Part shown: in pieces, positions 16-26,700 of the stretch
How the letters are laid out: every line of letters starts with the position of its first letter
Position numbering within the stretch: the first letter of the stretch is position 1
Source of the DNA: Spirochaetales bacterium
GTDB lineage: Bacteria; Spirochaetota; Spirochaetia; DSM-27196; SLST01
Length of the DNA: 37,266 nucleotides
NCBI GenBank assembly: GCA_019038705.1
Contig: JAHOYX010000186.1
Location: 1 to 37,266 of the forward strand
Reading direction: 5' to 3'
Made by a program: the position numbers and the translations under genes
The notes under the pieces: model-generated
What the model was told of the DNA's origin: nothing
The model's database searches: none
Seen by the model: the letters and a program-made list of their open reading frames with translations, nothing else

Positions 16-231
16 ATGCGACACGAGTTTTCTGCAATCATTGAGCGAGACCAGGAGTGGTACATTGCCTATTGCCCCGAACTCCCAGGGGCAAATGGTC
101 AAGGGGCGACCCTTGAGGAATGCAAGGACAGTCTGAAAGACGCTATCCGCTTGATCCTGGAGGACAGACTTCAAGACAGTCTTGCGGGCATGCCAGACGA
201 CGCCATCCGTGACGTAGTCGAAATCGACTGA
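16..231 (+). CDS. hicB: HicB-family antitoxin (short, no C-terminal DNA-binding domain)
   Basis: Typical HicB N-terminal fold sequence 'IIERDQEWYIAYCPELPGANGQGATLEE'; directly upstream of hicA. ATG at 16 preferred; ORF track uses GTG at 1 (window edge). Confidence 0.85.
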   Translation: MRHEFSAIIERDQEWYIAYCPELPGANGQGATLEECKDSLKDAIRLILEDRLQDSLAGMPDDAIRDVVEID

Positions 232-233
232 GT

Positions 234-419
234 GTGAAGCGCGAGATGCTTCTGCGTCATCTAAGACGGCGCGGCTGCCTACTCAAGCGAGAGGGCAGAT
301 CCCACAGCCTGTGGCTCAATCCTCAAACGGGAAGTATGGAAGCGGTGCCGCGGCATACGGAGATCTCAAATCGACTTGCACAGAAGATCTGCCGTGGCCT
401 GGGATTGCCGGCTCCATAG
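234..419 (+). CDS. hicA: HicA-family mRNA interferase toxin
   Basis: 61 aa, basic, 'REGRSHSLW...VPRH.EI....ICR.LG' HicA pattern with the catalytic His; 2 nt after the hicB stop. Confidence 0.88.
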   Translation: MKREMLLRHLRRRGCLLKREGRSHSLWLNPQTGSMEAVPRHTEISNRLAQKICRGLGLPAP

Positions 420-433
420 TTACTGCGCCATCT

Positions 434-1303
434 CTACACGAAGTCGCGGGCGCTCTTCATGAAGGACTCGTAGAGAGCGGGCGCCTCGTCAATGAACGCT
501 CTGATTCGAGAGAATCGCAGATCCAGGTATTCGTGGGCAAGCATGTTGCGGAGCCGGGTGAACTCCGCCAACTCGTCGCACACCTTCGGATCAAACGCAT
601 CCACGGCCCCCAGCGCTTCCACGGTTTCCCGGTAGGTTCGCGGCATACGTCCTCGTTTGGACGCCAGGATCGTCTTGGCTATGTCGATCGTTGCATTCAC
701 CAGGTTCTCGACCCACCGTTCCAGGTTCCGCCGGAAACTCCGGTCTCGCACGTACTCCTGCTTGCCCGCATCCTGAAACTCGCCGATGTCAGCCAATTCC
801 TCATCCAGGAAGTCCAGCGAGCGAAGGAGTCGAGTTCGATCTGTCGGTGAAAGCGATCGTGACCGGGCCTTGACCTGGGCGAAGTCTTCTGCAAATCGAT
901 CAAACTCTTCCGCGTCGTTGGTCACGGTCAGAAAGTACCGCCAGTAGAGAGCCCGATCGGCTATGACTACCGGGATGCCGTCAAAGAAGACGCTCGCCGC
1001 AAGCGCTGTGGGCGCCCGGTTGAGCACCACCAGGTCCACCTCCGCGCCGGCAATCTCCTCCACGCGCCGCCACACCGCACGCTCTCCGGGGTATTCGGTG
1101 TCCGCCTCTATCTCCAGAGTTGCACTGTGGGGCGGTGCGCCATGATCTCCTTCGGCCGGGCGGAAGTACACGGCAACATCCACGTCTGACTCATCGGTCT
1201 GGGTCTCCCTGGCCTGGGAGCCAAAGAGAAACGCCATGACAACGTCATCCCGGGTCGCGAAGTAGTCGGTAAGCTCTGCTACCAGGGCGTTCGTATCTGG
1301 CAC
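434..1303 (-). CDS. Fused MNT nucleotidyltransferase (MntA-like) + HEPN/DUF86 (HepT-like) RNase; type VII TA components in one ORF
   Basis: N-half has GS-x10-DxD (GSQARETQTDESDVD) and 'VDLVVLN'; C-half has DUF86-like 'LERWVENLVNATIDIA', 'PRTYRE' and R-x4-HxY (RNMLAHEY). Confidence 0.85.
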   Translation of the reverse strand: MPDTNALVAELTDYFATRDDVVMAFLFGSQARETQTDESDVDVAVYFRPAEGDHGAPPHSATLEIEADTEYPGERAVWRRVEEIAGAEVDLVVLNRAPTALAASVFFDGIPVVIADRALYWRYFLTVTNDAEEFDRFAEDFAQVKARSRSLSPTDRTRLLRSLDFLDEELADIGEFQDAGKQEYVRDRSFRRNLERWVENLVNATIDIAKTILASKRGRMPRTYRETVEALGAVDAFDPKVCDELAEFTRLRNMLAHEYLDLRFSRIRAFIDEAPALYESFMKSARDFV

Positions 1304-1309
1304 GCCATC

Positions 1310-1338
1310 ACGGTATACCGGAGCGGCTTCGGAGACAA
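1310..1338 (-). promoter_or_regulatory. Putative sigma70 promoter of the MNT-HEPN gene (leaderless arrangement)
   Basis: Minus strand TTGTCT-N17-TACCGT, then 6 nt to the GTG start at 1303; no Shine-Dalgarno. Confidence 0.45.
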
Positions 1339-1349
1339 GGGGTTGGTAC

Positions 1350-1376
1350 TGTCACCCATCGCCACGCTGGGTGACA
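1350..1376. repeat. 9-bp perfect inverted repeat (possible operator or hairpin) between divergent genes
   Basis: TGTCACCCA-N9-TGGGTGACA read directly from the sequence. Confidence 0.6.
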
Positions 1377-1442
1377 CCGTAGAATGTTTGGCGCAATATG
1401 CGTATTCTTGTCCCAGGCATCCCGCCACAAGAGGTGAGGCGT

Positions 1443-2483
1443 ATGAAGCGGATCGGTATTCTGTTCCTTCTCGTAGCTGTGCTCTCCGGTGCAGCATTCG
1501 CGCAGGCAGACATCTCCGGAATCGGCACCGATTTCGAGAATCTGATAGAGCAGCTGGGTGAGGACATGCTGCCTAACCTTGAGCAGTCGGCTATCTGGGG
1601 CCAGTTTCCCGGACAAGCTGCGCTACCAGACGATTCCAGGTTCTTCTTCACCATGTCCGCCGGCGCCGTTCTGGGTTTCAACGGGCTGCTGAGTTTCGTG
1701 GAACCGACCAATGCCGCGTTCGAGATTCTGAACGTCTACGAACTCGTCCAGGAGATTGTCGCGGGGAGCGAGCAGGCCGACGACCTGATAACCTTCATCC
1801 AGGGATTCTTCCCCTATCCAGTTGCCCGAAGTGCTCTTGGTTTTCGGCTCCCGGCAGGATTCGAGGCCATGGTGGATTTTGCCATCTTCCCGCAGTTTCT
1901 CGCTAACACGGCAACCAATCTGATTGACGCCGTGCCGCCATTCGAGATGAACACCCTCCATGTTGGCACTCGCGTTCGAAAGGTCCTGCTTCAGGACGCC
2001 CCGGGGGTCCCCGCAGTGTCGGTTGGCGCCGGCTACAGTTACACCGGCTTCAACCTCGCCTACGATTTTACAGGAATGCAAGGGATTTCCACAGCAATAG
2101 GCGAACTCAACTTGGCCGGAGAACTCTACCTCCGGAACCGGATCAACTCATTCGGCCTGGACCTGCAGGTCTCCAAGCAACTCGGCTTCTTCGTGCCTTT
2201 CGTTGGAATCTCACCGTACTACCAGCTTGCGGCCTTCTCGGGCGGGGTGGGAACGACCACGAACGAGTTTGATGCCTATGTCGATTTCTCGGAAACCGCT
2301 GAAGAACGCGACATCCCGTACGACGGTGATCCCCCGGCAACCACCCTGTCCGACAACGACCTGAGTTTCGTCGTTTTCGGCGGCTTCGATCTCGTGTTTG
2401 GCAATCTCGCGCTCCAGGTGCACAGCTCGTACAGCGTGGGCGAGGGATGGCCCGCCGTGACTATCGGAACTCGCTGGCAGTAG
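1443..2483 (+). CDS. Secreted hypothetical protein, probable outer-membrane beta-barrel
   Basis: RBS GAGGTGAGG before ATG 1443; signal peptide MKRIGILFLLVAVLSGAAFA|Q; amphipathic strands (VSVGAGYSY, FGLDLQVSK, VVFGGFDLVF); aromatic end 'VTIGTRWQ'. Confidence 0.6.
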   Translation: MKRIGILFLLVAVLSGAAFAQADISGIGTDFENLIEQLGEDMLPNLEQSAIWGQFPGQAALPDDSRFFFTMSAGAVLGFNGLLSFVEPTNAAFEILNVYELVQEIVAGSEQADDLITFIQGFFPYPVARSALGFRLPAGFEAMVDFAIFPQFLANTATNLIDAVPPFEMNTLHVGTRVRKVLLQDAPGVPAVSVGAGYSYTGFNLAYDFTGMQGISTAIGELNLAGELYLRNRINSFGLDLQVSKQLGFFVPFVGISPYYQLAAFSGGVGTTTNEFDAYVDFSETAEERDIPYDGDPPATTLSDNDLSFVVFGGFDLVFGNLALQVHSSYSVGEGWPAVTIGTRWQ

Positions 2484-2493
2484 CCAACGCGAC

Positions 2494-3222
2494 ATGCCTG
2501 ACGCGGTGACACTCAAATACGACGCGATCCTCATTGACGCAGACGACACCCTGTTCGATTTTCACCAGGCCGAGTACTACGCGCTGGAACGCACCCTTGC
2601 CAATCAAGGTCTGGCCGTCCAGGTCGATTCCATCATCAACGTCTTCAGGGAGATCAATGCCGTTGTCTGGCGCGAATACGAGACCGGCCAATCAACGCCG
2701 GAAGTCATCCGCACCAAGCGGTTCGTGCAGCTGCTGCAGCGTCTCGGATTGAGCACCGACCGCCGGATCGATCCTCAATCCGTGAGCGATTGTTACATAG
2801 AGCACCTGTCGGAGGCCGCGTTCCTGCTTGATGGTGCGCCTGAGCTGCTTGAACGGCTTCTCGGGACGGTGCCGTTGGTCATGCTGACCAACGGGCTCTC
2901 AAGTGTTCAGCGCCCGCGTTTCGCGAAGGCCGACGTGGGCCGCTACTTCCGCGACATCGTGATCAGCGAAGAGGTCGGCGTCCAGAAGCCGGATCCCGAA
3001 GTGTTTCGAATCGCCCTCGAACGAGCGTCCGGCGATGGGGCCGTGAGGCCGGACCGGGCCATCATGATCGGCGACAACCTCCACTCGGACATCCGGGGCG
3101 CGCTGGATGCCGGGCTCCACGCATGCTGGTTCAACCTCCGGGGTCGTTCAAACGATCATGGAGTCCAACCGACTTACACTGTGACATCGCTCGGCGAGAT
3201 CCCGCCCATCCTGGGACTCTAA
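2494..3222 (+). CDS. yjjG: HAD-superfamily hydrolase, YjjG-family pyrimidine nucleotidase
   Basis: Motif I DADDTLFDF, motif II LTNG, 'ISEEVGVQKPDP', motif IV MIGDNLHSDIRGA. Confidence 0.8.
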   Translation: MPDAVTLKYDAILIDADDTLFDFHQAEYYALERTLANQGLAVQVDSIINVFREINAVVWREYETGQSTPEVIRTKRFVQLLQRLGLSTDRRIDPQSVSDCYIEHLSEAAFLLDGAPELLERLLGTVPLVMLTNGLSSVQRPRFAKADVGRYFRDIVISEEVGVQKPDPEVFRIALERASGDGAVRPDRAIMIGDNLHSDIRGALDAGLHACWFNLRGRSNDHGVQPTYTVTSLGEIPPILGL

Positions 3223-3551
3223 ACAACCCACACAGTCTCGTCCCGCAAGACGCGGGCAAACCGTGAGTCCGCGGTCGCCAAACCGGCGCATTCCTCCTCC
3301 GTGTACACCAGAAGATCTGCGGGTACCGGTAAATGAGTTGTATCGAAAGTTGCGGAACGCCGTACAAAGGCGAGATCGTGACCGGTGACCGTGACCACTA
3401 TGTCGATATCGCTTCCGACTCCCGCGTCACCGCGGGCATACGAACCGAAGTAACCGCCGCGGACGATCTGACCGGCATATCTGATTGCCTCGTTGCTCTG
3501 AAGCTGCCCGTAGTGCTGAAACGGCGGGCCCTCCGGATGCCCGTTGGGGCT
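3219..3551 (-). pseudogene. Relic HEPN-MNT toxin-antitoxin pair: HEPN C-terminal fragment joined to an MNT nucleotidyltransferase lacking its N-terminus
   Basis: Manual translation of the startless open frame 3551->3219: SPNGHPEGPPFQHYGQLQSNEAIRYAGQIV-RGGYFGSYARGDAGVGSDIDIVV...LPVPADLLVYTEEE...RFARVLRDETVWVV*. Not in the ORF track. Confidence 0.75.
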
Positions 3552-3566
3552 TCAAGTGGCTGCTAA

Positions 3567-4991
3567 TTAGGGTCCGTCAATGTCCACCGAGGCTATGCCG
3601 GTCTCTCCGGCAATCAAGACTACGCCCGTACTGTCGTCCAGGAAGAGACCGGTCGGGGCGGTAACGATTCCCGCGTAGATAGGCAGAAGTGAGTATGGCC
3701 CACCGTCCGACGACACAATCAGGAAGTGATCAGTCAGGATTGCGTGGTAGTTTGCACCGATGGCCATGTCCTGAACGGTTCGACCGATGGACTCGGTCAC
3801 CACGTCGCTGGTTGGGATGGAGTCCAGGTCCAGGTCAGCTTTCAACACGCTGACGACACCTCTGTTGGTTCCGAGGTAGAGCTCGGTATCAACCAGTGCG
3901 AGTTCCGTGATGGTGGCCTCTTCATCATCAATCGCAACCTCGAAGAATGAGGAAGCCTCGAGAATCCCCTGCACGGTGTTGATGTTCTCGGTGAGAATTC
4001 TCTCCGGCGCCTTGAATGCGCCAAGCTTGCTCGCGAAGTATCCGTCAATCCCGCCGGTGCTGGAGTCAACCACAAGATCTGATATGGGCTGGCCGGAGAT
4101 GAAGGTGCTGAGGTCGATGTCCGCAACCCATTGCTTGGCTCCAACTTCGTTATCGTAGACGCCGCCCAGGCCACCGTCCACCTGGAACCAACCGAAGAGG
4201 TCCCCGCCGGACAGGAATGCTCCGGAGTCAAGAACCGGTGGGAAGTCTGATGGGTAATCCGTGCGAAAGCCCAGCTCCAGCGAGGTGCCGCCAAGATACG
4301 GAAGGATTCCCTTCGTCGTGTTGACCCACGGGACGCCGTACGTCGGCTCTGTAACAAGCGCCCCCATGCCCATGCCGATCGCCTCCTCGCCATCGGGCAG
4401 CGCGGCTCGCACCGTCGCGGAGAGATCGTGGGCGAGCTCAATCGCTTCACCGGCAGACGCCGTGTAGAACAGGAAATCGTCTGGAATCGTCGGTCCGCGC
4501 TGTACGTTCACGATTCCCTTGAGATTCTCACCAAACACGACCGGCACGAGGCCGAAGGGGCTGGTAACTGGGACGAGCTCCTTCAGGGTGGCCTGGCCGG
4601 CGATCACGGCAAACTGATCGCTCACCGCATAGAGCTCCGGCACGAAGATCGTCGCATCACCCCCGGCCACGGGGTCGGCCGCGTCGTTACCGAGGACCAG
4701 AATGATCTGATATCCGGGGCCCGATGGCACCGGTCCGATGGAGACTTCGTTATCCGCCTGCTCGATTTCGACGACCTTGTACGGTGTCGTCTCGCCAATC
4801 GTTACAAGCGCGATTTCGTTCAGCAGGTAGATACGGGCGATCTCCTGATCGGAGGCTTCGCCGGTACTGCTGGCATCGGGAAGCTTAATCCCGACCGATC
4901 CGACGCCGTCGTTCACGGGAACGTAACAGCCGGCGAGGAGGAGGCCGGTGATCAATGCGATTCCAAGAAGCTTGATTGTGTTCTTCATCAT
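3567..4991 (-). CDS. Hypothetical lipoprotein (about 474 aa, beta-rich)
   Basis: Lipoprotein signal MMKNTIKLLGIALITGLLLAG|C; RBS AGGAGGGG; C-terminal propeller-like strings 'LYLGTNRGV', 'YFASKLGA', 'LIAGETGI'. Confidence 0.75.
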   Translation of the reverse strand: MMKNTIKLLGIALITGLLLAGCYVPVNDGVGSVGIKLPDASSTGEASDQEIARIYLLNEIALVTIGETTPYKVVEIEQADNEVSIGPVPSGPGYQIILVLGNDAADPVAGGDATIFVPELYAVSDQFAVIAGQATLKELVPVTSPFGLVPVVFGENLKGIVNVQRGPTIPDDFLFYTASAGEAIELAHDLSATVRAALPDGEEAIGMGMGALVTEPTYGVPWVNTTKGILPYLGGTSLELGFRTDYPSDFPPVLDSGAFLSGGDLFGWFQVDGGLGGVYDNEVGAKQWVADIDLSTFISGQPISDLVVDSSTGGIDGYFASKLGAFKAPERILTENINTVQGILEASSFFEVAIDDEEATITELALVDTELYLGTNRGVVSVLKADLDLDSIPTSDVVTESIGRTVQDMAIGANYHAILTDHFLIVSSDGGPYSLLPIYAGIVTAPTGLFLDDSTGVVLIAGETGIASVDIDGP

Positions 4992-5005
4992 TTCACCCCT
5001 CCTTC

Positions 5006-5650
5006 CTACCACTTCACGGTGATGTAGCCGGAAGAGCGTGGGCCGTCATCAAAATCATCGGGCCCCCGGCCATCTCCGATATCCGCCAGTTGATTCAGTT
5101 CGTCGGCCGGGTTGCTTGGCGCACCCCCGGTCGTCACGCTGATCTGGCCCGGGTTGATGTTCCTGCCCTCGCCAAGCGCGTTCGCAAACTCAACGACGCC
5201 CTCCGTGACGGATAGTTGCCATCCGTTTGTCTCAAACCCGGTGCCGCGAACAGCAGCGGTCGAGAGGGGCCCGCGCACCCGAAAGTCCGCAGATCGACCC
5301 TCGGCCGTGCTGACAGTTGCCCGGACGCGTCCCACCGGCACAAAGACGTTGGTACTCAACGTTCCTTCGCGTTCGATCAATTCTTCCAGGGTGAGGCGTG
5401 TGAGTTGACTGATTTCCAGCACGGAGCCGTTCGCTGCCTCGCCAATTCGGATGATCGCCGAGGCGCCAAACCCGGTGGAAATGGTGGCGTTGAGAGCCAG
5501 TTGCCGGCCAACCGTCGCGGTCTGCCACCCTCCACTCCCTACTCGATACTCAACCTTGCCACTGACCTCGCGGATCATGGCGTCCTGCGCAAAAAGCGGT
5601 GACGCCACCACTGCAAGCAACAGCAGCAGCATGATTGTCGTCTTTTTCAT
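5006..5650 (-). CDS. Secreted FecR-domain protein (about 214 aa)
   Basis: Signal peptide MKKTTIMLLLLLAVVASPLFA|Q; FecR-like 'ISTGFGASAIIR', 'GRVRATV', 'FRVRGPLSTAAVRGTGF', 'LSVTEGVVEF'. Confidence 0.8.
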   Translation of the reverse strand: MKKTTIMLLLLLAVVASPLFAQDAMIREVSGKVEYRVGSGGWQTATVGRQLALNATISTGFGASAIIRIGEAANGSVLEISQLTRLTLEELIEREGTLSTNVFVPVGRVRATVSTAEGRSADFRVRGPLSTAAVRGTGFETNGWQLSVTEGVVEFANALGEGRNINPGQISVTTGGAPSNPADELNQLADIGDGRGPDDFDDGPRSSGYITVKW

Positions 5651-5690
5651 CCCTCGCCTCCCCATCTGCAGGTTTCTCGGAATCAGGGCA

Positions 5691-7094
5691 TTAGAACCGA
5701 AGCACACCCTGCAGGGTGAACTGGTAGTCAACCTTCTTATTTCCCGTGGTCATCACCGCCGCGTTTGGCAGAAAGAGCCCGCCTGCAAGTACGAAGCGGA
5801 GATCGGAGAAGGGCTGGGCCACGATCTTCAGGTCGATATCGGTACCGATATACGCCCCGTCCTCTGTCGCGTCAACCGCGCCCTCCGACACGGGACCCCC
5901 GCCCATCGATCTGAAGTACGAAACGCTGGAAAGCTCGGTCTGAAGGATATCCAGGCCGATGCCTGACAGGGGCCGTAGACTATACGATACCGCAACATGG
6001 CCTGAGTTTCCGGGTTGCAGAGTAAAAACGTCGGAATACGAGCTTGCCGAGATGGGGACAAACGATGTTGCGAGTTCGTTCGTATTCCCGTCGTAGTAGT
6101 CATTTGAATCCGCATCCCCGGTCGAAAACTGACCGCCGAGACGGATGCGTGAGTTCAGCACCTGCGGCAGGAAGTAGCTCAACTCCAGTCCGGCCAGATG
6201 ACCGAAAATCGGGGTGTATTGGTATGAACTACCCGTAATGCTGTCCGCATCTGAGCGGTAGGTGAGAGTCCGGCCCGTGTTGAGTGTGTAGTAGGTTCGA
6301 TGGAAGAATCCCTGAGTGATCCCGCCGGAGAGCATGAGCGACAGATACTGGGTGTCCATCACGCCGCCGCCACCGGTCGGGTCAAATGCGGTCTCAAACT
6401 CCGGAGTCAATTGGGCCTCCGGGCGGAGATCTTCCTGGACAACGGCGCCAAGCGTCAGGTCCTGTCCGGCCACCAGGCTGCGTGCCTGGAACTCAGCCGT
6501 CGCGATGAGTTTGGGCGGAGCAAACGGACTGTAGATCTCCGGATCGTCTTCCGGATTTGCCCCGAGTGCTTCCACGTCAAGGTTACTCATGACGATCGTG
6601 GAGGACGGTTTCTGTATCACCGCGGAGGTTGCGACCCCGGCACTGAACGATGAGGCCGTCCAGCCGATATTCAGTTTCAGGCCGTCCAGTGAATGATCAA
6701 GGACGTAGCCGGTGGAGTCGGAGAACTGCATTCGACCTATCTGGAAGCCGAGCGATCGCGCGCCGCCTGCCTCTGCCGGAAAGGCGCCTCCGAGCACCAA
6801 TCGATCCAAATCCAGCAGACCCCACTTGGTGACTGGCGGGTAGTCGTAGGTGTAGCTGCCCTGTGCATCCAGACTCCATAATCCGAACGAGTGATAGAGC
6901 CACGCCGCGATGGTTGCGCTCTGGACAGGCAGAACGACAATCGGCGTGCCGTTCCTGCCCACTGCACCTACCGGGGCCTTTGCGAGTCCGGTGGTGTTGT
7001 CCAGGTATCCGCCGACGTCCCAGGCGGAGAGCGAAACGGTGATCAGAAGCGCTATCAGGAGAAAGGCGAGCCGTTTCATCGTGATCGATTTCAT
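5691..7094 (-). CDS. Predicted outer-membrane beta-barrel protein, unknown function
   Basis: Signal peptide (MKRLAFLLIALLITVSLSA|W), alternating strands, 'YIGTDIDL' and 'LAGGLFLP' as in alginate-export-like barrels, and C-terminal Phe (LQGVLRF) matching a BamA beta-signal. Start could be 7079. Confidence 0.7.
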   Translation of the reverse strand: MKSITMKRLAFLLIALLITVSLSAWDVGGYLDNTTGLAKAPVGAVGRNGTPIVVLPVQSATIAAWLYHSFGLWSLDAQGSYTYDYPPVTKWGLLDLDRLVLGGAFPAEAGGARSLGFQIGRMQFSDSTGYVLDHSLDGLKLNIGWTASSFSAGVATSAVIQKPSSTIVMSNLDVEALGANPEDDPEIYSPFAPPKLIATAEFQARSLVAGQDLTLGAVVQEDLRPEAQLTPEFETAFDPTGGGGVMDTQYLSLMLSGGITQGFFHRTYYTLNTGRTLTYRSDADSITGSSYQYTPIFGHLAGLELSYFLPQVLNSRIRLGGQFSTGDADSNDYYDGNTNELATSFVPISASSYSDVFTLQPGNSGHVAVSYSLRPLSGIGLDILQTELSSVSYFRSMGGGPVSEGAVDATEDGAYIGTDIDLKIVAQPFSDLRFVLAGGLFLPNAAVMTTGNKKVDYQFTLQGVLRF

Positions 7095-7567
7095 CGATTC
7101 GCCCCCTGCTCCAGTCGATGTAGATCTTCAAGGAAGATGCCCGTCACGCTCAGCAGAAAACTGCCGGAAAACTGGTCGGCCGGGCCAACCCTGATTGGTG
7201 ACCAGCCGGAGTAGGTGAACTCGCGAGTGGCGTATCGCGGGCCGGGGAAGATTCGGTACATCAAGCCGCCCTTCACTTCGAAGACCTGCATGAGCAGATG
7301 CGCAAGCCGGCCAAATCCGGCCGGGTCGTCCGCGGAGATCGCAGGGTCCAGCCATCCGGCCTGAATTGCCACCTCTACGGCCTTCTGCGGGGACGAATCG
7401 TCGTTGACGAGTTCTCCGGCGGAGAGGGCCACGTAGGCGGCGGAGCCTACCGTTGCGACGTCCTGCGCGAGAATCTGATCGATTATCTCGTTGGACTGAG
7501 CCGCGGCGCCGAGCGTGACTACCAGCAGCAGTGCGAAGACTAGAACGAGCCGTCGTCGGTTGGCCAT
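7091..7567 (-). CDS. Small secreted hypothetical protein (about 158 aa), possibly SLH-like
   Basis: RBS GGAGGAG before ATG 7567; signal peptide MANRRRLVLVFALLLVVTLGAAA|Q; stop overlaps the next start (ATGA 7094-7091). Confidence 0.7.
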   Translation of the reverse strand: MANRRRLVLVFALLLVVTLGAAAQSNEIIDQILAQDVATVGSAAYVALSAGELVNDDSSPQKAVEVAIQAGWLDPAISADDPAGFGRLAHLLMQVFEVKGGLMYRIFPGPRYATREFTYSGWSPIRVGPADQFSGSFLLSVTGIFLEDLHRLEQGANR

Positions 7568-7599
7568 TGCCTTCTCCTCCCGGGCGGGATCCGATTCCG

Positions 7600-7628
7600 A
7601 ATATACTCTTATTCCACACCCCGTGCAA
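7600..7628 (-). promoter_or_regulatory. Putative sigma70 promoter of the envelope operon
   Basis: Minus strand TTGCAC-N17-TATATT upstream of the RBS of 7567. Confidence 0.6.
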
Positions 7629-7640
7629 TTATAGTAGGAT
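7612..7640 (+). promoter_or_regulatory. Putative sigma70 promoter of the CHASE2 cyclase
   Basis: TTCCAC-N17-TAGGAT (alternative -10 TATAGT at 7630); RBS GGAGGT before ATG 7662. Confidence 0.4.
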
Positions 7641-7661
7641 TGCCGACAGCGGAGGTAGGAT

Positions 7662-10400
7662 ATGCGCAAGCGTTTGGTGGAATTCCTCATTCCTGCGATA
7701 GTTCTGGCCATTTTTGCAGGCCTGAACTTCGTTCCCTTCTTCCAGACGGCTGAAAAGCGGGTCTACGACCTGTTTCTCCGCATACGGCCCGCAGTTGAAC
7801 AGCGTGACGACATACTGTTCATGGACGTGGACGACAACGCGATTGCCAACGTGGGGCTCTGGCCGTGGAGCCGCGACTACATGGCGCGAGGTCTGATCCT
7901 TCTGCGCGAGTTTGATTCCAGCTATGTCACCTTTGATATCGAGTACGTAGATCCCAGCCCGCAAGCGGTGAACGCGCGCTACCTGCAGCAGGATCTTCCC
8001 CGTGACCTTGATGCCGAGTTCAGCTTTGTCCAGGACAGCATCTATGGACTCTTTGATGCACTCGCACAGGGGCAGATCAGCATTGCGGAGGCCGGAGACT
8101 TCATAGATGATCTGTCCGTGCTCACCGAAGATGTGAAAGCCAACCTGATCACCGCCGTGACAAACGTCGTGCGGGATAATGATCAGTTCCTCGGTCAGGC
8201 GGCCGGGTTCCACGGTCTGTCCTTCTTCACCGTGAACCAGCTCCGTGAGCTGGAGCCGTTGAGCGACGCGGAGCGTGCCAAACGCGATCAACTCATTCTC
8301 TACGTTGAGGATGCGGTGAACATCGACGAGATCGATGTTGTGGACGCGTCAAAAGTCCAGACCGGCGCGGATCTCCGCCCGACGATTCAACCCGTGCTCT
8401 CGCACGCCGGCGGCGCAGGATTCCCGAACGTTGTGGTTGATGACGACGGCGTCCGGCGAAGAATCGATCTGGTGACCGAGACCAACGGAACCTACTATGC
8501 CCAGCTCGTTACTGCTCCGCTGTTGGATTGGCTGGGCCAACCGACAGTTCGGGTGGATCGCAATCAGATCACGCTGCAGGACGCCCGGCTTCCCGGCTCG
8601 CCGATAACCACCGACATCCACATCCCGCTGGCCACCGACGGCCGGATGCTCATCAACTGGCCCAAGGCCACCTTCCTGGAGAGCTTCCGTCACCTCTCCT
8701 ACTGGCGGCTGGTCTACCACTGGGAGGTTGAGGAAGAGATTGTAGATCGATTACGGGCCATGGATGAGGCAAACTTCCTCTTCTTCTACGAGGGAGGCGA
8801 CCAACTGCTTCCGCTCTATGACTTTGCCGAGAGTCTAAAAGACGACGTGCTGGCCGGCGGTGATCGCGCGCAGATTGACGATTGGCGCGAGTACCGGCAG
8901 ATTTTTTTTGAAGAAGCAGGGGCATTCCTCGCCGGCACCGCGGAGGAAGACCTGATCGCCGAGCTTGATTACGCCATCAACTCCGGCGAGCTCCAGCCCG
9001 AGGACGCGGAGACCTACCAGATCATCAAGGATGAGGCGCGAGCCATCTTTGCCGAGACGCGCGAGCGGTACGATCTGTTCATGGAGAATCGACAGGTGCT
9101 CCAGGACGAAGTGGCCGGCAGCTTCGTGATCATCGGTTGGACCGGGACGTCCACCACCGATATCGGTGTCAATCCGTTTGAGCACGAGTACATGAATGTT
9201 GGTACCCATGCGGCGGTCGTCAACACTATCCTCAACGAGAACTTCCTGGACGATCTGCCGTGGTGGATTCCGTTTGCGGGATCGGTGGTGTTCGTCTTCC
9301 TCACTACCCTGATTATTCGCCGGCTCAAGGAGAAGCCTGTGCGGTCGCTCCTCGTCGGTTTCGGCGCGCTGCTTCTCATTGCCGCCGTCGGTGTGGTGCT
9401 GTTCGTGACCACCGGCATATACATGAACATCCTCACTCCGCTGCTCTCGGTGTTTCTCACGTTCATCGTGCTGACCATTATGAACTTCTTGACCACAAAC
9501 AAGGATAAACAGTTCATTCGGAGCGCGTTCAGTCACTACCTGTCGCCAGACGTCATCAACGAGGTTCTGTCCGATCCCGCGAAGCTCGGTCTGGGAGGCG
9601 AGAGGAAGAACATCTCCGCAATTTTCACCGACGTTCAGGGCTTCTCCACCATCAGCGAGGCTATCTCACCGGAAAAGCTGGTCCACCTCCTGAACAGATA
9701 CCTCACCGAGATGTGTGACATCATCCTCGACGGCCGCGGAACCATCGACAAGTTTGAGGGTGACGCGATCATTGCCTTTTTCGGCGCCCCGGTTGAGATG
9801 GACGACCATCAGATCCAGGCCTGCCGGGCGGCAATTCAGATGAAGAAGCTGGAGGAACGGCTCAACCAGGAGTTCCTTGACGATGAGTTGTCTCCCACGC
9901 CCCTGCTCACCCGGATAGGGGTCAACAGTGGCGACATGGTCGTGGGTAACATGGGCACCGACACGCGCATGGATTACACCATGATGGGTCACAACGTGAA
10001 TCTTGCCGCTCGGCTGGAAGGTGTGAACAAGCAGTACGGTACCTGGATCCTCGTGAGCGAGCAGACCTACGATAAGACAGGCCGCGCATTTTCCGTCCGC
10101 AAGCTGGATCGCGTGCGGGTCATGGGAATTACGGAGCCCGTTCGGCTTTACGAGCTCATTGATCTGCGCGAAGAGGTGGACGGGGACCAGAATCTCATTG
10201 ATAAGCTGCGGACCTTCAACGCCGGACTCACCGCCTTCGAGGAGAAAGCGTGGGGCGAAGCCGAGAAGAACTTCGCGGTTGTCCTGAACGAATACCCCGA
10301 GGACGGGCCCGCGAAGTACTATCTGGACCGTTCGCGGAAGTTCAAGAAGACTCCACCCAGCCCGGATTGGGACGGTGTTTTCAACCTGACCAAGAAATAA
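7662..10400 (+). CDS. CHASE2-domain membrane adenylate cyclase (class III) with C-terminal TPR-like tail
   Basis: N-terminal TM; CHASE2 motifs 'GLWPWSR', 'FDIEY', 'DDDGVRRRI', 'IIGWT', 'GTHAAVVNTIL'; 3 TMs; catalytic 'FTDVQGFST', 'DKFEGD' (Lys indicates ATP), 'DYTMMGHNVNLAARLE'. Confidence 0.92.
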   Translation: MRKRLVEFLIPAIVLAIFAGLNFVPFFQTAEKRVYDLFLRIRPAVEQRDDILFMDVDDNAIANVGLWPWSRDYMARGLILLREFDSSYVTFDIEYVDPSPQAVNARYLQQDLPRDLDAEFSFVQDSIYGLFDALAQGQISIAEAGDFIDDLSVLTEDVKANLITAVTNVVRDNDQFLGQAAGFHGLSFFTVNQLRELEPLSDAERAKRDQLILYVEDAVNIDEIDVVDASKVQTGADLRPTIQPVLSHAGGAGFPNVVVDDDGVRRRIDLVTETNGTYYAQLVTAPLLDWLGQPTVRVDRNQITLQDARLPGSPITTDIHIPLATDGRMLINWPKATFLESFRHLSYWRLVYHWEVEEEIVDRLRAMDEANFLFFYEGGDQLLPLYDFAESLKDDVLAGGDRAQIDDWREYRQIFFEEAGAFLAGTAEEDLIAELDYAINSGELQPEDAETYQIIKDEARAIFAETRERYDLFMENRQVLQDEVAGSFVIIGWTGTSTTDIGVNPFEHEYMNVGTHAAVVNTILNENFLDDLPWWIPFAGSVVFVFLTTLIIRRLKEKPVRSLLVGFGALLLIAAVGVVLFVTTGIYMNILTPLLSVFLTFIVLTIMNFLTTNKDKQFIRSAFSHYLSPDVINEVLSDPAKLGLGGERKNISAIFTDVQGFSTISEAISPEKLVHLLNRYLTEMCDIILDGRGTIDKFEGDAIIAFFGAPVEMDDHQIQACRAAIQMKKLEERLNQEFLDDELSPTPLLTRIGVNSGDMVVGNMGTDTRMDYTMMGHNVNLAARLEGVNKQYGTWILVSEQTYDKTGRAFSVRKLDRVRVMGITEPVRLYELIDLREEVDGDQNLIDKLRTFNAGLTAFEEKAWGEAEKNFAVVLNEYPEDGPAKYYLDRSRKFKKTPPSPDWDGVFNLTKK

Positions 10401-10402
10401 CC

Positions 10403-10426
10403 TGGGTCGCCCTCCAGGGCGACTCA
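10403..10426 (+). terminator. GC-rich hairpin right after the cyclase stop; possible terminator or mRNA stabiliser
   Basis: TGGGTCGCCC-TCCA-GGGCGACTCA, 10-bp stem with one G-U pair; no U-tract. Confidence 0.4.
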
Positions 10427-10625
10427 ACAACAGCGGCGCCTTTCCAGGTCCTTGCGGCCGGGGGCAATTGTAGCTATCATTTCTTTCCTCGGAACTTGAT
10501 GAGTTCGTCTCTGTTTTCCTCGGCAGAATGATATGCCGCACGGTCAAGGATCGGGCAGCGGTGAACGCCACAGTCCGCGAAGAGCTCTCCGAAAGCAGAG
10601 CACAAAGAAGAACAAAGGAGACATC

Positions 10626-10997
10626 ATGAATAGGATCTTTGCTGTACCAACGGAAAACGGGAAGCTGTGTACCCATTTCGGTCACTGTGAGAGCTTTGCG
10701 ATTCTCGAAGTCGTGGATGATAGCATTACAAAAGAGAGCTATGTGGATCCACCGGTTCACCAGCCAGGCACATATCCGGCGTTTCTGGCGGAGAAGGGCG
10801 TACACACCATAATTGCGGGTGGTATGGGCGTAATGGCTCAGAATCTCTTCGCAGAAAACAAGATCGAAGTACTCATGGGAATTGACGCTGAGGATCCTGC
10901 TAAGCTGGTAGAGAAGTACCTTCAGAGCGAACTGGAAAACGGTGACAACCTCTGTGACAGTGATCACGGGCACGGAGATGGACATCATCAGCAGTAG
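10626..10997 (+). CDS. NifB/NifX-family (dinitrogenase FeMo-cofactor-like) protein with His-rich tail
   Basis: RBS AAGGAG; 'HFGHCESF', 'PPVHQPG', 'IIAGGMG', end 'NLCDSDHGHGDGHHQQ'. Confidence 0.85.
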   Translation: MNRIFAVPTENGKLCTHFGHCESFAILEVVDDSITKESYVDPPVHQPGTYPAFLAEKGVHTIIAGGMGVMAQNLFAENKIEVLMGIDAEDPAKLVEKYLQSELENGDNLCDSDHGHGDGHHQQ

Positions 10998-11006
10998 ATA
11001 TCCTTG

Positions 11007-21369: not shown

Positions 21370-21864
21370 ATGAGTGACAACTTCAGCTTCCGCCTCTGGC
21401 GTTATGAGGGAGAGCCGGGGGAATTGATTCCGCTGCTGCAGTCAGCTCAGAATCACTTCGGATACATACCGCGCCGAGCAATCAGATACATTTCAGGTGT
21501 TAGTGGTATTCCTGAATCGGACATATATGGTGTTATCACCTTCTACAGCCAGTTCCGGCTTCGCCCCACCGGCAGGTTGCTTATCAGAGCCTGTGACGGG
21601 ACCGCCTGCCATGTTACCGGTTCAAAACTGATTATCGAGACGATTGAAGATGAACTGGGCATCAGCGTGGGTGATACAACCGAAGACGGGCTTTTCACTC
21701 TCAATACGGTTGCCTGCATAGGGTGTTGTTCTCTTGCCCCGGTCATCATGGTAAATGAAGAGACTCACGGAAATCTCAGCCCCGTTTCCCTGAGAAAATT
21801 GCTGCGGAAGATCAAGCGCAGAGAAGAGCGCACAGAAATAACTGCTTCAAGCCACAGCCAATGA
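21370..21864 (+). CDS. stnA: NuoE/HydC-like [2Fe-2S] subunit (StnA-like)
   Basis: 'LIPLLQ..Q..FGYIP', 'YGVITFYSQF', CDGTAC and CIGCC. Confidence 0.85.
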   Translation: MSDNFSFRLWRYEGEPGELIPLLQSAQNHFGYIPRRAIRYISGVSGIPESDIYGVITFYSQFRLRPTGRLLIRACDGTACHVTGSKLIIETIEDELGISVGDTTEDGLFTLNTVACIGCCSLAPVIMVNEETHGNLSPVSLRKLLRKIKRREERTEITASSHSQ

Positions 21865-21949
21865 CCAGGTGCCTCAGTAACTCGAGATTGCCGCAGGCGT
21901 GGGTCGGGGTGGAGCCCTCCCTGGTTTTCAAGGAGATTGGAAGGTCCGG

Positions 21950-23731
21950 ATGAAGAAGATCGTTGTAGGAATGGGCACCTGTGGCCTGTCTGCGGGAGCA
22001 CAAGGGGTATACGACAAGCTGCGGGACCTGGCTGCCGGAGCGACAGGGGCTTGCGAACTCACGATCTCAGGCTGCATCGGGATGTGCTATTCGGAACCCA
22101 CCGTGGAGATCCGTGACAACGGCTCGAGAGTATTCTACGGCAATGTTACGCCGCAACGAGCAGAGAAAATCTTCAGGAGTCATGCTGAGGGCGATGAACT
22201 CCTCGCGGAAGACGAAATCATATATCTGGAGAAGGCCAACGGGACTGTAGGCGGAACCGAAGCGGCCTTTATGGCTCAACAGCAGCGAGTAGTCTTGAGG
22301 AACTGCGGAACGATCAACCCTGAATCTATCGAGGATTACGAGAACGCCGGCGGCTATCGGGGACTGCGCAAGGCTCTCCTTGAAATGACTTCCGAGGGAA
22401 TAATCCAGGAGATGAAGGACTCAGGATTGAGAGGGCGGGGTGGAGCCGGCTTCCCCACTGGACTGAAATGGTCCTTCACGGCGGGAAATGAAGCGGACAG
22501 GAAATACGTGGTCTGCAATGCGGATGAGGGAGATCCCGGCGCGTTCATGGACCGCTCCGTCCTGGAAGGAGACCCGCACTCGGTTATTGAGGGGATGATC
22601 ATTTGCGGCCGGGCAATCGGGTCCGACTTCGGCTACATCTACTGCAGAGCAGAATATCCGTTGGCAATTCACCGACTCAACCTGGCCATTGACGCCGCCA
22701 GAGAGAAGGGCTATCTCGGGAAGAACATCCTGGAATCCGGTTTCAACTTTGATCTGAAGATCAGGCAAGGCGCCGGAGCATTTGTCTGTGGCGAGGAAAC
22801 GGCCCTGTTCGCCTCCATCGAAGGCAAGAGAGGGATGCCGAGAATAAGGCCGCCGTTTCCTGCAGAGAAGGGACTCTGGCAGAAACCAACCAACAACAAC
22901 AATGTCGAGACCTTTGCCAACGTAGCCTGGATCATCGACAGGGGGGCGGCAGCCTACGCGTCCTTCGGGACCGAGAAGAGCAGAGGAACCAAGGTCTTCG
23001 CGCTTGCCGGGAAGATCAGCCGTGGCGGCCTGGTCGAGGTTCCCATGGGCACATCGATCAGCGATCTGGTCCTCGATATTGGCGGTGGCATAAAGAAGGG
23101 AGGCAAGTTCAAGGCGGTCCAGATGGGAGGGCCCTCCGGCGGCTGTATTCCTGCCGCGCTCGGTGATACGCCCGTCGATTTTGAGAACATACCGGCAACA
23201 GGGGCAATCATGGGTTCCGGCGGCATGGTCGTTCTGGACGAGAGTTCATGCATGGTCGAAATGGCGCGCTTCTTCCTGGAGTTCACCCAGAGTGAATCCT
23301 GCGGCAAATGCACCTTCTGCAGAATCGGTACCCTCAGGATGCTCGAGATCCTTGAACGGATCACCAACGGCGAAGGACAACCGGACGATATCGACAAGCT
23401 CGCCGTCCTGGGCGCCCAGATCAAGGAAGCCAGCCTCTGCGGCCTGGGACAAACCGCTCCCAATCCGGTCTTGACTACTCTCCGGTACTACCGGGATGAA
23501 TATCGGGCCCACATCGAGGACAAAACCTGCCCGGCGGGCGTCTGCTCTTCTCTGGTGGATTTCCACATAGATCCGGAGAAGTGCACAGGATGTGGTGTCT
23601 GTGCAAAGAACTGCCCCGTCCAGGCCATCTCCGGTGAGCCAAAGAAGGTCTACGTCATCGACAATTCGATTTGCGCGAAGTGCGATAGATGTGTGACCAG
23701 CTGCAGCTTTGATGCAGTGTACAAGCGTTGA
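21950..23731 (+). CDS. stnB: NuoF/HydB-like FMN/NADH-binding bifurcating subunit (StnB-like)
   Basis: N-terminal thioredoxin-like Fe-S domain; 'GRGGAGFPTG', 'NADEGDPGAFMDR', 'GAFVCGEET', 'GGPSGG', 'SCGKCTFC', two C-terminal [4Fe-4S] motifs. Confidence 0.88.
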   Translation: MKKIVVGMGTCGLSAGAQGVYDKLRDLAAGATGACELTISGCIGMCYSEPTVEIRDNGSRVFYGNVTPQRAEKIFRSHAEGDELLAEDEIIYLEKANGTVGGTEAAFMAQQQRVVLRNCGTINPESIEDYENAGGYRGLRKALLEMTSEGIIQEMKDSGLRGRGGAGFPTGLKWSFTAGNEADRKYVVCNADEGDPGAFMDRSVLEGDPHSVIEGMIICGRAIGSDFGYIYCRAEYPLAIHRLNLAIDAAREKGYLGKNILESGFNFDLKIRQGAGAFVCGEETALFASIEGKRGMPRIRPPFPAEKGLWQKPTNNNNVETFANVAWIIDRGAAAYASFGTEKSRGTKVFALAGKISRGGLVEVPMGTSISDLVLDIGGGIKKGGKFKAVQMGGPSGGCIPAALGDTPVDFENIPATGAIMGSGGMVVLDESSCMVEMARFFLEFTQSESCGKCTFCRIGTLRMLEILERITNGEGQPDDIDKLAVLGAQIKEASLCGLGQTAPNPVLTTLRYYRDEYRAHIEDKTCPAGVCSSLVDFHIDPEKCTGCGVCAKNCPVQAISGEPKKVYVIDNSICAKCDRCVTSCSFDAVYKR

Positions 23732-23742
23732 GGAGTAATGGG

Positions 23743-26700
23743 ATGGAACGCATCAAGGTCAAGATCAACGGACGGGAGTTCGAGGCCGATCCGGGAAAGA
23801 CCATCCTGGATGTCGTCCGGGACAACGAAATTGACGACATTCCGACCCTCTGTCACTCGCCCGAGCTTGATCCGTACGGGTCATGCTTTCTCTGCGTTGT
23901 CGAGGTGGAAGGACGAAACAACCTCGTGCCCGCCTGCTCCACCAGGCTCACACCGGGCATGGAAGTGCAAACGCGCAACGACCGAGTCATCGCCAGCCGT
24001 AAGACCGCGCTTGAGCTGCTCCTGTCAAACCATTATGCCGATTGTCTGGCCCCTTGCACGCTGGGCTGCCCGGCGGGCGTAGACGCCCAGGGCTATATTG
24101 CGCTCTCCGCCATGGGGCTTCATCGCGAGGCCGTGGATCTCATTCGTGAGAGGAATCCTCTGCCGGCCGTATGCGGCAGGATCTGTGTTCGCAAGTGCGA
24201 GCTTCTCTGTCGTCGTAATGATATCGATGAGCCGGTCGGTATCAACGCGATCAAACGATTTATCACGGATCTTCCCGGCATCTACGACGACGAACCGGAA
24301 TGTGCCCCGCCGAGGGAAAAATCGGTGGGCATTGTAGGCGCCGGTCCTGCCGGTCTCACCGCCGCCTGGTTCCTGGGACGCAACGGGTACAAGACGGTTA
24401 TCTATGAGGCCATGGACAAGTCGGGCGGCATGCTTCGATACGGCATCCCTGCCTACAGGCTGACAGACGCTGTGCTGGACCGGGAAGTTGATTACATCTG
24501 CAAAGCCGATGTCGAGATCAGGTATGGAGTCAGAGTCGGTCAGGATATCCCGCTGCAGACCCTCCGAGCAAACCACGACGCCGTGTTCCTGGCGGCGGGC
24601 GCCTGGGCCGGCAAAGCCATGATGGTGGAAGGGGAGTTTGAAACAGATGGCGTGGTCGGCGGGATTGAATTCCTCAGGGAGAAGACGGATGATCCTCAGC
24701 CGCTCACCGGAACCATTACGGTCATCGGCGGCGGGAACACGGCAGTGGATGCTGCCAGAACTGCCTGGCGGCTGGGCGCCGACAAAGTAATCGTGCTCTA
24801 CAGACGAACAAAGAACGAAATGCCTGCCGACGAGATGGAAATAGCGGCCTGTCTGGAGGAAGGCATCGAGATCATGGAGCTGGCTGCTCCTGTGGGCATC
24901 ATAGCGGAAGGCGGCCGGCTCACGGCCCTGCGATGCACCAGGATGAAGCTTGGAAGTCCGGATTCATCCGGCCGCCGCCGACCCATTGCACTTGAAGGCT
25001 CCGAGTTCGATCTTCCCTGCCGGACGGCGGTGGTAGCCATTGGCCAGGCTCCCGCTCTGGATGGCCTGACCTCCACAGCCGCAGGAGAGCTGGGACTGAG
25101 CCGCTGGAACACCATTGAGGTCGACTCGGACACGATGAACACCAATATCGATGGGCTTTTCGCCGGAGGTGACGCAGCCGATGACGGCCCCACCGTCGTA
25201 ATTGACGCAATCAGGGATGGACGGAAGGCTGCCGGGGCTATTCACGCCCGGTTTGGCGATGACCGGCTTCAACCCGGTTCTTTTGCGGTAGCCAAAGACT
25301 TCTGGGTGAAGCCGGGCGCCACCGAACTGGGAGAAATAACGGAGAGCCCCCGGCATGAGGTCCACACGATCAGCGTGGAGGATCGCGAGGGCAGCTTTGC
25401 CGAGGTAGCCTCGGGATTCGAGTATGAGGATAACGTTCACGAGACCGGCAGGTGCCTCTCCTGTGGGTGCGTCAAGTACGAAGATTGCCCACTGCGCCTC
25501 TATGCGGAAGAGTACGAAGTGGACATGGATCGCCACAAGGGGCATGTGAGAAAACACAAGGTGGATGACCGCCATCCGTACCTGCTCTATGACCCGAACA
25601 AGTGTGTTTTGTGTGGCCGGTGCATCCGGACCTGTGCTCGGGTGCTGCCCATCCCTGCGCTTGGGTTGATCGGCCGGGGGATCAAGACGGAAATGCGCCC
25701 GGCCATGAACGATCCTCTGGCAGAAACCAGTTGCATCAGCTGCGGTAACTGCATCGATGCCTGTCCCACGGGCGCTCTCACCTCCAAGTACGCATTTCCC
25801 GGCCGCGCTTCCTTGAGCACCAGCGACGTGGACACCTACTGCGGGTTCTGTTCCCTGGGCTGTCCCATTACAGTGAAGCGGTTTGGAGACAATCGGTACC
25901 ACATCAGCTCGGGTGGTGGCCCGGGCGCATATCTGTGCCGATACGGAAGATTCGACACCGAGCTGTTCATCAAGCAGAAGAGGATCGTGAATCCCGTGGT
26001 GCGTTCAGGCAGTCAGTACCGTGAGGTAGGTTTTGAAGAGGCGTATGGCACGATTGTCGACGCAATGAAAGAAGCTGCGGAAACCCATGGGGCTGAAAGC
26101 GTGGCTGTCTTTGCCTCCCCGGAGCTGACCAATGAGGAACTCTACCTGGCCGGTCGGATTGCCAGAGAGGGATTGAAAACCAACAACATAGGTTCCTTTT
26201 CTGTCCTCTCAAGCGGGAAAGCACCCGGCGTCCTGGATCCCTTCTTTGGCTTCACGGCTTCCACCGCTGACCGGACTGCTCTGGCCGACGCTGATCTGAT
26301 TGTCTGCAGCAACACCAGTCTGGAATCGGATCATCTGATCCTCTCCGTCGACGTGAACGCGGCAGTGAGAACGGGAACGAAGCTCATTGTCGCCAATTCC
26401 ACGCTCACCGCAAACGACAGTTTCTTCGCCTCTCTGGCCATGGATCCAATGAGGGGAAGTGGCTCCGCCCTGTGGAACGGCGTGCTCCAGATGCTGCTGG
26501 ATTCCGATCGCTTCAAAGGTGTGGAAGACCTGCCGGGGGGGAGCGAGTTTCTGGACACCCGAGATTTCACCTCAGAGCGCGTTTCAGAGCTCACGGGGGT
26601 CAGCGCAGAGAACATTGGTCAGGCGGCAGAACTGCTCGGCGAAGCGCAGAGGGTAGTCTTCATTCATAGTCCTGACAGAGTTCAGGATCAGGCGCCGGGA

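Follow-up and report, generated by a model that had tools for sequence, protein, structure and literature searches.

A conserved six-gene envelope module of Spirochaetota with a CHASE2 cyclase, a possible split counterpart of the NsrA relay

CHASE2 is a widespread sensor domain, the signals of which are still called unknown (PMC5192318). The only example which has been worked out is that of NsrA and the rhizobial cyclases, one fused protein in one symbiont: NsrA was described as an outer-membrane receptor which is needed by CyaK and CyaD1/D2 (PMC7529298, PMC13001267) and was reported to be required for perceiving an external signal (PMC7529298). Here we describe a locus of a Spirochaetales bacterium (assembly GCA_019038705.1, contig JAHOYX010000186.1) in which a CHASE2 cyclase (E) is encoded beside a small secreted protein (A), an outer-membrane barrel (B), a FecR-domain protein (C), a lipoprotein (D) and a further secreted protein which resembles outer-membrane proteins (U). 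The stretch analysed, called the window below, is the whole contig of 37,266 bp, from a metagenome-assembled genome which is 64% complete. We found that these six genes are a real, conserved module, a variant of the NsrA/CHASE2-cyclase kind, which may work as a trans-envelope sensor.

Clusters of FecR and CHASE2 genes have been reported before. The Burkholderia “BiofilmReg” operon encodes a response regulator, a LysM+FecR protein, a CHASE2 histidine kinase and a DUF4136 protein, and LysM+FecR with a CHASE2 histidine kinase is also found in P. aeruginosa (PMC5192318). This operon shares with our locus a secreted FecR protein with a wall-binding element beside a CHASE2 receptor, but its output is a histidine kinase, LysM is on the FecR protein itself and no barrel is described in the main-text passages of that paper. 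In Campylobacterota a CHASE2 cyclase is clustered with a phosphodiesterase, a FecR-domain protein of the outer membrane and a TPR protein, for which one pathway was proposed (PMC9239204). The likeness is again a CHASE2 cyclase clustered with a FecR-domain envelope protein; the phosphodiesterase and TPR genes are absent from the spirochaete cluster, and A, the AlgE-like barrel, the propeller lipoprotein and U do not appear in the main-text passages which describe the Campylobacterota cluster. A stand-alone FecR gene, SMc02177, is next to cyaD1 in S. meliloti (PMC5498481), where we inspected the locus. The preliminary description of this DNA had presented its system as undescribed, which is too strong because FecR-CHASE2 clusters are already in print for Burkholderia, Campylobacterota and S. 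meliloti (PMC5192318, PMC9239204, PMC5498481). For the spirochaete version no paper was found, in a search which left most subscription journals and supplements outside.

Genes A to D are encoded on one strand, with a 4 nt overlap of A and B (ATGA) and gaps of 40 nt (B-C) and 14 nt (C-D), and E is transcribed divergently from A across 94 nt (Table 1). The open reading frame (ORF) listing and translations reproduced exactly the five-gene layout and spacings given in the preliminary description. Export signals were read by eye from the translations, without a signal-peptide program: the N-termini of A, B and C are basic-hydrophobic and end in AAQ/SNE, LSA/WD and FAQ/DA, respectively, and D has the lipobox LLAG-C. 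The export signals first proposed were therefore seen again, as signal-peptide-like N-termini in A to C and a lipobox in D, and so were the protein identities: B as a barrel of outer-membrane type (model, Foldseek), C as a FecR protein (Pfam) and D as a lipoprotein (lipobox, model). A, B and D had no match in our local copy of Pfam. Restricting the system to the genes from D to E proved too narrow, because U, a sixth co-conserved gene, lies outside them.

The cyclase E matched Pfam CHASE2 (E-value 2e-28, above cut-off, in two stretches split by an insertion) and Guanylate_cyc (1.3e-19). Its topology, read by eye, begins with a first transmembrane segment and a periplasmic CHASE2 region of ~490 amino acids (aa) with the insertion; three transmembrane segments lead to a class III catalytic domain, and the protein ends in a short helical tail. 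The hydrophobic segments are at residues ~8-28 and 528-607. The catalytic domain gave a full-length alignment with P. aeruginosa CyaB (3r5g; E-value 3e-38), and the stretches FxDxxGF, DKFxGD and RMDYTxxGxxVNLAxRLE are conserved. We take these stretches to be the metal, adenine and transition-state residues and E to be an adenylate rather than a guanylate cyclase; on its residues E looks catalytically competent. Eleven cNMP_binding matches were found in the same genome. This genome also has a second CHASE2 cyclase (736 aa, on contig C86), the CHASE2 domain of which is without the insertion; in the stretch 107-3274 of that contig it is preceded by a small ORF and by a lipoprotein with HExxH (AHEISHVENRH, to the eye like an M48 peptidase), and no FecR gene was seen on the contig, which is 3.7 kb long.

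We examined the conservation of the cluster in the order and in the phylum. B homologues were present in 38 of 41 sampled genomes of the order, and the order sample comprised 40 loci, each fetched around a B hit with up to 19 kb of sequence and including those of second copies (tblastn, followed by hidden Markov models (HMMs) built from orthologues). A, B and C were found together in 28 of these loci. An E orthologue was likewise found in 28, lying 59-243 nt from the block in 26 of them and mostly divergent from A; at least 5 of the 12 loci without E run out less than ~1 kb beyond the block, on the flank on which E should lie. For the phylum A served as the marker; 37 of the 151 genomes sampled, belonging to 22 of 88 genera, have it, almost always as a single copy. 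A+B+C were present in 24 of 32 phylum-level loci, in the orders A-B-C, C-A-B or A-C-B, and an E-type cyclase was inside the fetched stretch in 18 of the 32. All five genomes with unlinked A-B-C which were searched whole had an E-type CHASE2 ORF elsewhere (877-954 aa). The co-occurrence of the operon genes with CHASE2 proteins in other genomes, on which the preliminary description had staked its proposal, thus held, with A+B+C kept across Spirochaetota. A profile of the CHASE2 region of E had matches at an E-value ≤ 1e-10 in 57 of the 151 genomes, and these included all 37 A-positive genomes vs 20 of 114 A-negative genomes (lists compared by hand), counts which relatedness inflates as kin are not independent. 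We regard this co-occurrence as strong but not statistical support.

The structure of B was predicted with AlphaFold2 from 31 orthologues as an 18-strand beta-barrel (predicted local distance difference test (pLDDT) 93.9, predicted template modelling score (pTM) 0.88). AlgE chains took the first 13 ranks in Foldseek (E-values 1.6e-21 to 1.2e-19, TM 0.62-0.67, top TM 0.65), followed by other porins of 16-18 strands. Pfam Alginate_exp was matched by 7 of the 31 B-family members (best E-value 3.3e-6), the B of the window not being one of them, and the B-family profile matched the OmpM1 barrel in the PDB (5e-6). No fused forms of B above 827 aa were found, which is weak evidence.

The protein A is small and helical, with an invariant RYA.RE motif in an alignment of 27 orthologues (PGPRYATRE in the window copy), and had no sequence match in Pfam or the PDB. 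An exhaustive profile search placed 1446 cluster representatives in its family (E-value ≤ 1e-3), and longer, fused forms turned up among the best 150 of these. Two of them, P0192 (578 aa) and P0319 (541 aa), consist of A, a short linker and a B-type barrel (hhalign 100% and 99.7%), in which the barrel lacks a signal peptide of its own and starts from its mature end; in P0248 and P0285 the A domain is followed by an OmpA-family peptidoglycan-binding domain. These two sorts of fusion point to A as a partner of B on the periplasmic side, where it would be the adaptor of the barrel, and to this adaptor being wired to the wall in some organisms. A further protein, P0205 (347 aa), has a weak OMP_b-brl match (0.009) and may be A plus a small barrel. 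All A- and B-family homologues encountered are named “hypothetical protein”.

Tethers of the OmpM/OmpA type are a natural comparison for A. The A+barrel fusions have, like these, a periplasmic domain followed by a barrel, A is also fused to OmpA-family domains, and the ESM Atlas model of A came structurally closest, among named entries, to SLH-domain clusters (TM 0.59-0.65). The differences are that A and B are separate proteins in the window and that A has no Pfam SLH match, with 0 of 27 family members at an E-value ≤ 10 and nothing in its own, 64% complete genome. It had been suggested that A anchors the complex to peptidoglycan; the fusions to OmpA-family domains elsewhere give such a link indirect support, and by analogy the A of the window might itself bind peptidoglycan.

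The protein C matched Pfam FecR (8e-7, above cut-off) and NCBIfam Lsa33 at 8.7e-9, which is far below the cut-off of that family. A cleavable-looking signal peptide leads straight into the FecR domain; next come an acidic, Gly-rich linker, which varies in length, and a terminal amphipathic strand which is conserved, SGYITVKW (26 orthologues). Most C orthologues across the phylum end in an alternating hydrophobic strand and an aromatic residue. A second tail, ..DP(E/Q)(K/R)L, was found in seven loci (L115, L116, L120, L124, L131, L133 and L134) and goes with a C which does not come after B, either in the order A-C-B or as A-C with B weak or undetected.

The AlphaFold2 model of D has an N-terminal beta-sandwich and a beta-propeller (pLDDT 84.0, pTM 0.84), and its Foldseek matches were generic propellers: PorZ (5m11), the periplasmic domain of the Bacteroides sensor BT4673 (3ott), leptospiral Lp49 (3bws) and BamB in 8pz2. 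D orthologues come after C in its own family and in some others, D-like lipoproteins (HMM E-values 2e-9 to 2e-6) are between C and E in five loci of other families (L114, L117, L119, L121 and L137), and other lineages have different lipoproteins in this place; the lipoprotein is therefore a recurrent but exchangeable member.

U has a signal-peptide-like N-terminus and the C-terminus ..TIGTRWQ, with no match in the local Pfam copy; its neighbours by ESM Atlas features were Lsa36/DUF6588 clusters of spirochaete outer-membrane proteins (score 0.98), which we treat as a lead only. The HMM scan found U homologues beside the cluster in 13 order-level loci. U is convergent to D in its own family and abuts D or E directly in other families, and in other classes U immediately precedes A in the same orientation (L114, L117, L119, L137, L121 and L125), as the first gene of a co-directional U-A-B-C-D-E row. 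By this gene order U is, on the evidence of the genomes, the sixth conserved member of the module.

The locus is closest to that of NsrA. On S. meliloti pSymB an ORF of 1219 aa directly upstream of cyaK, which we took as NsrA by position and length, has Pfam FecR at 85-179, TPRs at 397-606 and then a C-terminal barrel part. In both bacteria a FecR domain and an outer-membrane barrel are encoded next to a class III cyclase of the inner membrane which has CHASE2, and C aligned with the FecR part of NsrA (hhalign 95.6%, E-value 1.3e-8). As NsrA has FecR, TPR and barrel in one chain, whereas FecR and barrel are separate genes in the spirochaete, the module is best read as a split and rebuilt NsrA/CHASE2-cyclase relay. 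A, D and U had no counterpart in the part of the rhizobial locus viewed. By analogy the module may be split-NsrA-like in function, but it is outside the NsrA family by its barrel and architecture.

We consider the chances about even that this conserved spirochaete envelope module of U, A, B, C, D and E works as a trans-envelope sensor. B would be an AlgE-like 18-strand outer-membrane barrel with A as its periplasmic adaptor, C a periplasmic FecR protein tethered through its flexible linker and C-terminal beta-strand, and the sensing surface would be provided, or given its shape, by D, the propeller lipoprotein, and U, the further outer-membrane protein. Through C and its FecR domain, changes in the outer membrane or wall would reach the CHASE2 domain of E in the periplasm, and E would alter its synthesis of cyclic AMP (cAMP); the readers of this signal would be the genome's many cNMP-binding proteins. 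We favour this direction, with the envelope proteins as input, because NsrA sets an example for it and because the co-occurrence is specific to one type of CHASE2. A narrower form of this reading, which we think unlikely as it stands, is that the FecR domain of C is the protein “ligand” of this CHASE2 class, held on an A-B-D-U complex spanning outer membrane and wall, with the linker and strand of C docking in or on B, so that a mechanical or integrity sensor acts on cAMP. If true, it would add a third kind to the trans-envelope signalling systems, next to those of the TonB/ECF-sigma and Rcs types.

Several points weigh against the sensor reading. All physical contacts in it are ones which we infer, as are the direction of the signal, the cue and the choice of cAMP over cyclic GMP. 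A complex prediction of the E CHASE2 region (residues 30-520) with mature C (23-214) gave a score of 0.01 (mark 0.32) and, run without controls, counts neither way. The idea of a split NsrA, already part of the preliminary description, fits, but the barrel of NsrA showed no detectable homology to B (hhalign probability 0.3%), and had itself no Pfam or PDB family match, and NsrA has TPRs whereas Pfam found none in A-D. The link to the cyclase is also looser in places. A-B-C are far from E in several lineages (at 1.35 Mb and 2.46 Mb, respectively, in genome G105), and the order-level loci without E include a B-C set without A (L047), two lone B paralogues (L064 and L065) and a B-C set with only a weak A-like match (L063). 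In L126 (genome G087, contig C17, 4982-8009) A is followed 137 nt on by an E-type cyclase on the same strand, and neither B nor C was detected in 14.5 kb. Twenty A-negative genomes still have CHASE2 matches, most of which are weak matches to other CHASE2 types. Finally, SMc02177 was reported to be dispensable for signal perception (PMC5498481), and the L047 set adjoins alginate-type genes; these last two points are taken up with the alternatives which they support.

The 94-nt spacer between A and E had 74% mean column identity over 13 orthologous loci, with flanking proteins ~50-58% identical. It contains a palindrome at ~7597-7616 (GAATAT-ACTC-TTATTC; CCAATAT-N4-ATATTGG in most relatives), the half-sites of which co-vary among the 13 spacers, and a conserved block, TGCAATTATAGTAGGAT, at 7624-7640, as well as the ribosome-binding site (RBS) of E. 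The palindrome and block are a candidate operator and promoter. A simple consensus scan for sigma-70 promoters and terminators and a search of Rfam, both over 3000-11000, found nothing in the spacer.

Such a spacer would suit the alternative that the envelope genes are output, which we consider improbable on balance: the A-D operon would be controlled by the cAMP which E makes, or be co-regulated with E from a shared divergent promoter, C, D and U would be proteins of surface or adhesin type, the result would be remodelling of the surface, and CHASE2 would sense something else. The palindrome is fit for a transcription factor, but we take it to be unlike a CRP site. C and U show likeness to families which take their names from surface adhesins of Leptospira, with the reservations on the Lsa33 and Lsa36/DUF6588 matches given above, and the separation of A-B-C from E in some lineages points the same way. 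Regulation alone, on the other hand, leaves unexplained why every A-positive genome also has an E-type CHASE2. The S. meliloti literature bears on both sides. SMc02177 is induced via CyaD1/D2/K and Clr (PMC5498481), and as a cAMP/Clr target it demonstrates that a FecR gene beside a CHASE2 cyclase can be output; NsrA, with its FecR domain on a barrel, was reported to be needed upstream of CyaK and CyaD1/D2, the CHASE2 cyclases (PMC7529298).

Rather improbable, in our view, is that the cluster is an export machine with a monitor, in which B would be an AlgE-type pore for exporting polymers, with C, D and A as its periplasmic and lipoprotein accessories, and CHASE2 a sensor of the product or of the state of the machine. 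AlgE was the top structural match of B, some B-family members match Alginate_exp, C has a long, acidic linker which looks disordered, and AlgE with AlgK/AlgX likewise combines an 18-strand barrel with a lipoprotein and periplasmic partners encoded alongside. Moreover, in genome G040 (contig C28, 3033-10971; locus L047) a paralogous B-C(-D) set directly follows AlgX-like, AlgF-like and two secretory-lipase-like genes, so that an export role for the barrel stays alive. However, the 18-strand fold is common to many porins, the B of the window reaches no Pfam family, and D is a propeller rather than a TPR protein. Pfam on the window ORFs found no polysaccharide synthesis or export genes adjoining the cluster, including alginate synthesis, polymerase, glycosyltransferase and acetyltransferase genes, and in G040 no Alg8/Alg44-type, other polymerase or glycosyltransferase domain was found in the subset of 18 ORFs scanned over ~22 kb upstream of its B paralogue.

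That these are ordinary outer-membrane proteins with no functional tie to the cyclase which they adjoin is very improbable, since their linkage, although inferred from genomes and lost in some lineages, persists in many families and in several classes even though the genes change their order, with E-type CHASE2 in all A-positive genomes and a conserved spacer. Chance adjacency was rejected because the arrangement recurs in relatives and the 94-nt spacer is conserved.

We also compared the cluster with the FecA-FecR-FecI system, with which it shares a FecR-family periplasmic domain in a pathway from an outer-membrane barrel. FecIRA has an extracytoplasmic function (ECF) sigma factor and a TonB-dependent transducer, neither of which is in the window, and the output here would be a cyclic nucleotide; the FecR of FecIRA has a cytoplasmic anti-sigma domain and a transmembrane helix, where C has a signal peptide instead. 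That the window lacks any ECF sigma factor or TonB-dependent receptor, noted earlier from the sequence, agreed with Pfam searches of the 24 further window ORFs, the genome beyond the window not being searched. A classical Fec-type system was rejected, as there is no sigma factor, TonB-dependent transducer or anti-sigma part.

Table 1 Features of the module and its divergent control region in the window.
Feature	Position	Strand	Description
A, small secreted protein	7091-7567	-	158 aa (ORF listing, translation)
B, outer-membrane barrel	5691-7094	-	467 aa, C-terminus ..GVLRF
C, FecR-domain protein	5006-5650	-	214 aa
D, lipoprotein	3567-4991	-	474 aa
E, CHASE2 cyclase	7662-10400	+	912 aa
U, secreted, outer-membrane-protein-like protein	1443-2483	+	346 aa from ATG at 1443; longest ORF from 1398
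Divergent control region A/E	7568-7661	.	palindrome, conserved block, RBS of E

Other genes of the window include a HAD-family hydrolase gene between U and D (2494-3222, +), a position which is kept in the own-family loci reaching that far; it is probably a passenger. At 434-1303 (-) one ORF of 289 aa has a HepT-like RNase domain together with a nucleotidyltransferase (Polbeta/NTP_transf_2) and looks like a fused pair of the MNT-HepT toxin-antitoxin type. In the stretch 21370-27435 (+) NuoE-like and NuoF-like genes are followed by a protein of 1235 aa with 2Fe-2S, GltD-like flavin, 4Fe-4S and molybdopterin-oxidoreductase domains; this set, which looks like a large soluble redox complex, adjoins a PAS histidine kinase and a sigma-54 activator.

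The A and B families are without a Pfam model in the copy searched. The spirochaete module splits into a pore, an adaptor, a FecR relay, a lipoprotein and a cyclase, which can be tested separately, and natural domain fusions tell which of these parts belong together. As the module is kept across the whole phylum, including cultivable species, it offers a route to experiments which lead from an event at the outer membrane to a cyclase. It is of interest mainly because its separable parts and natural fusions help to work out what CHASE2 senses.

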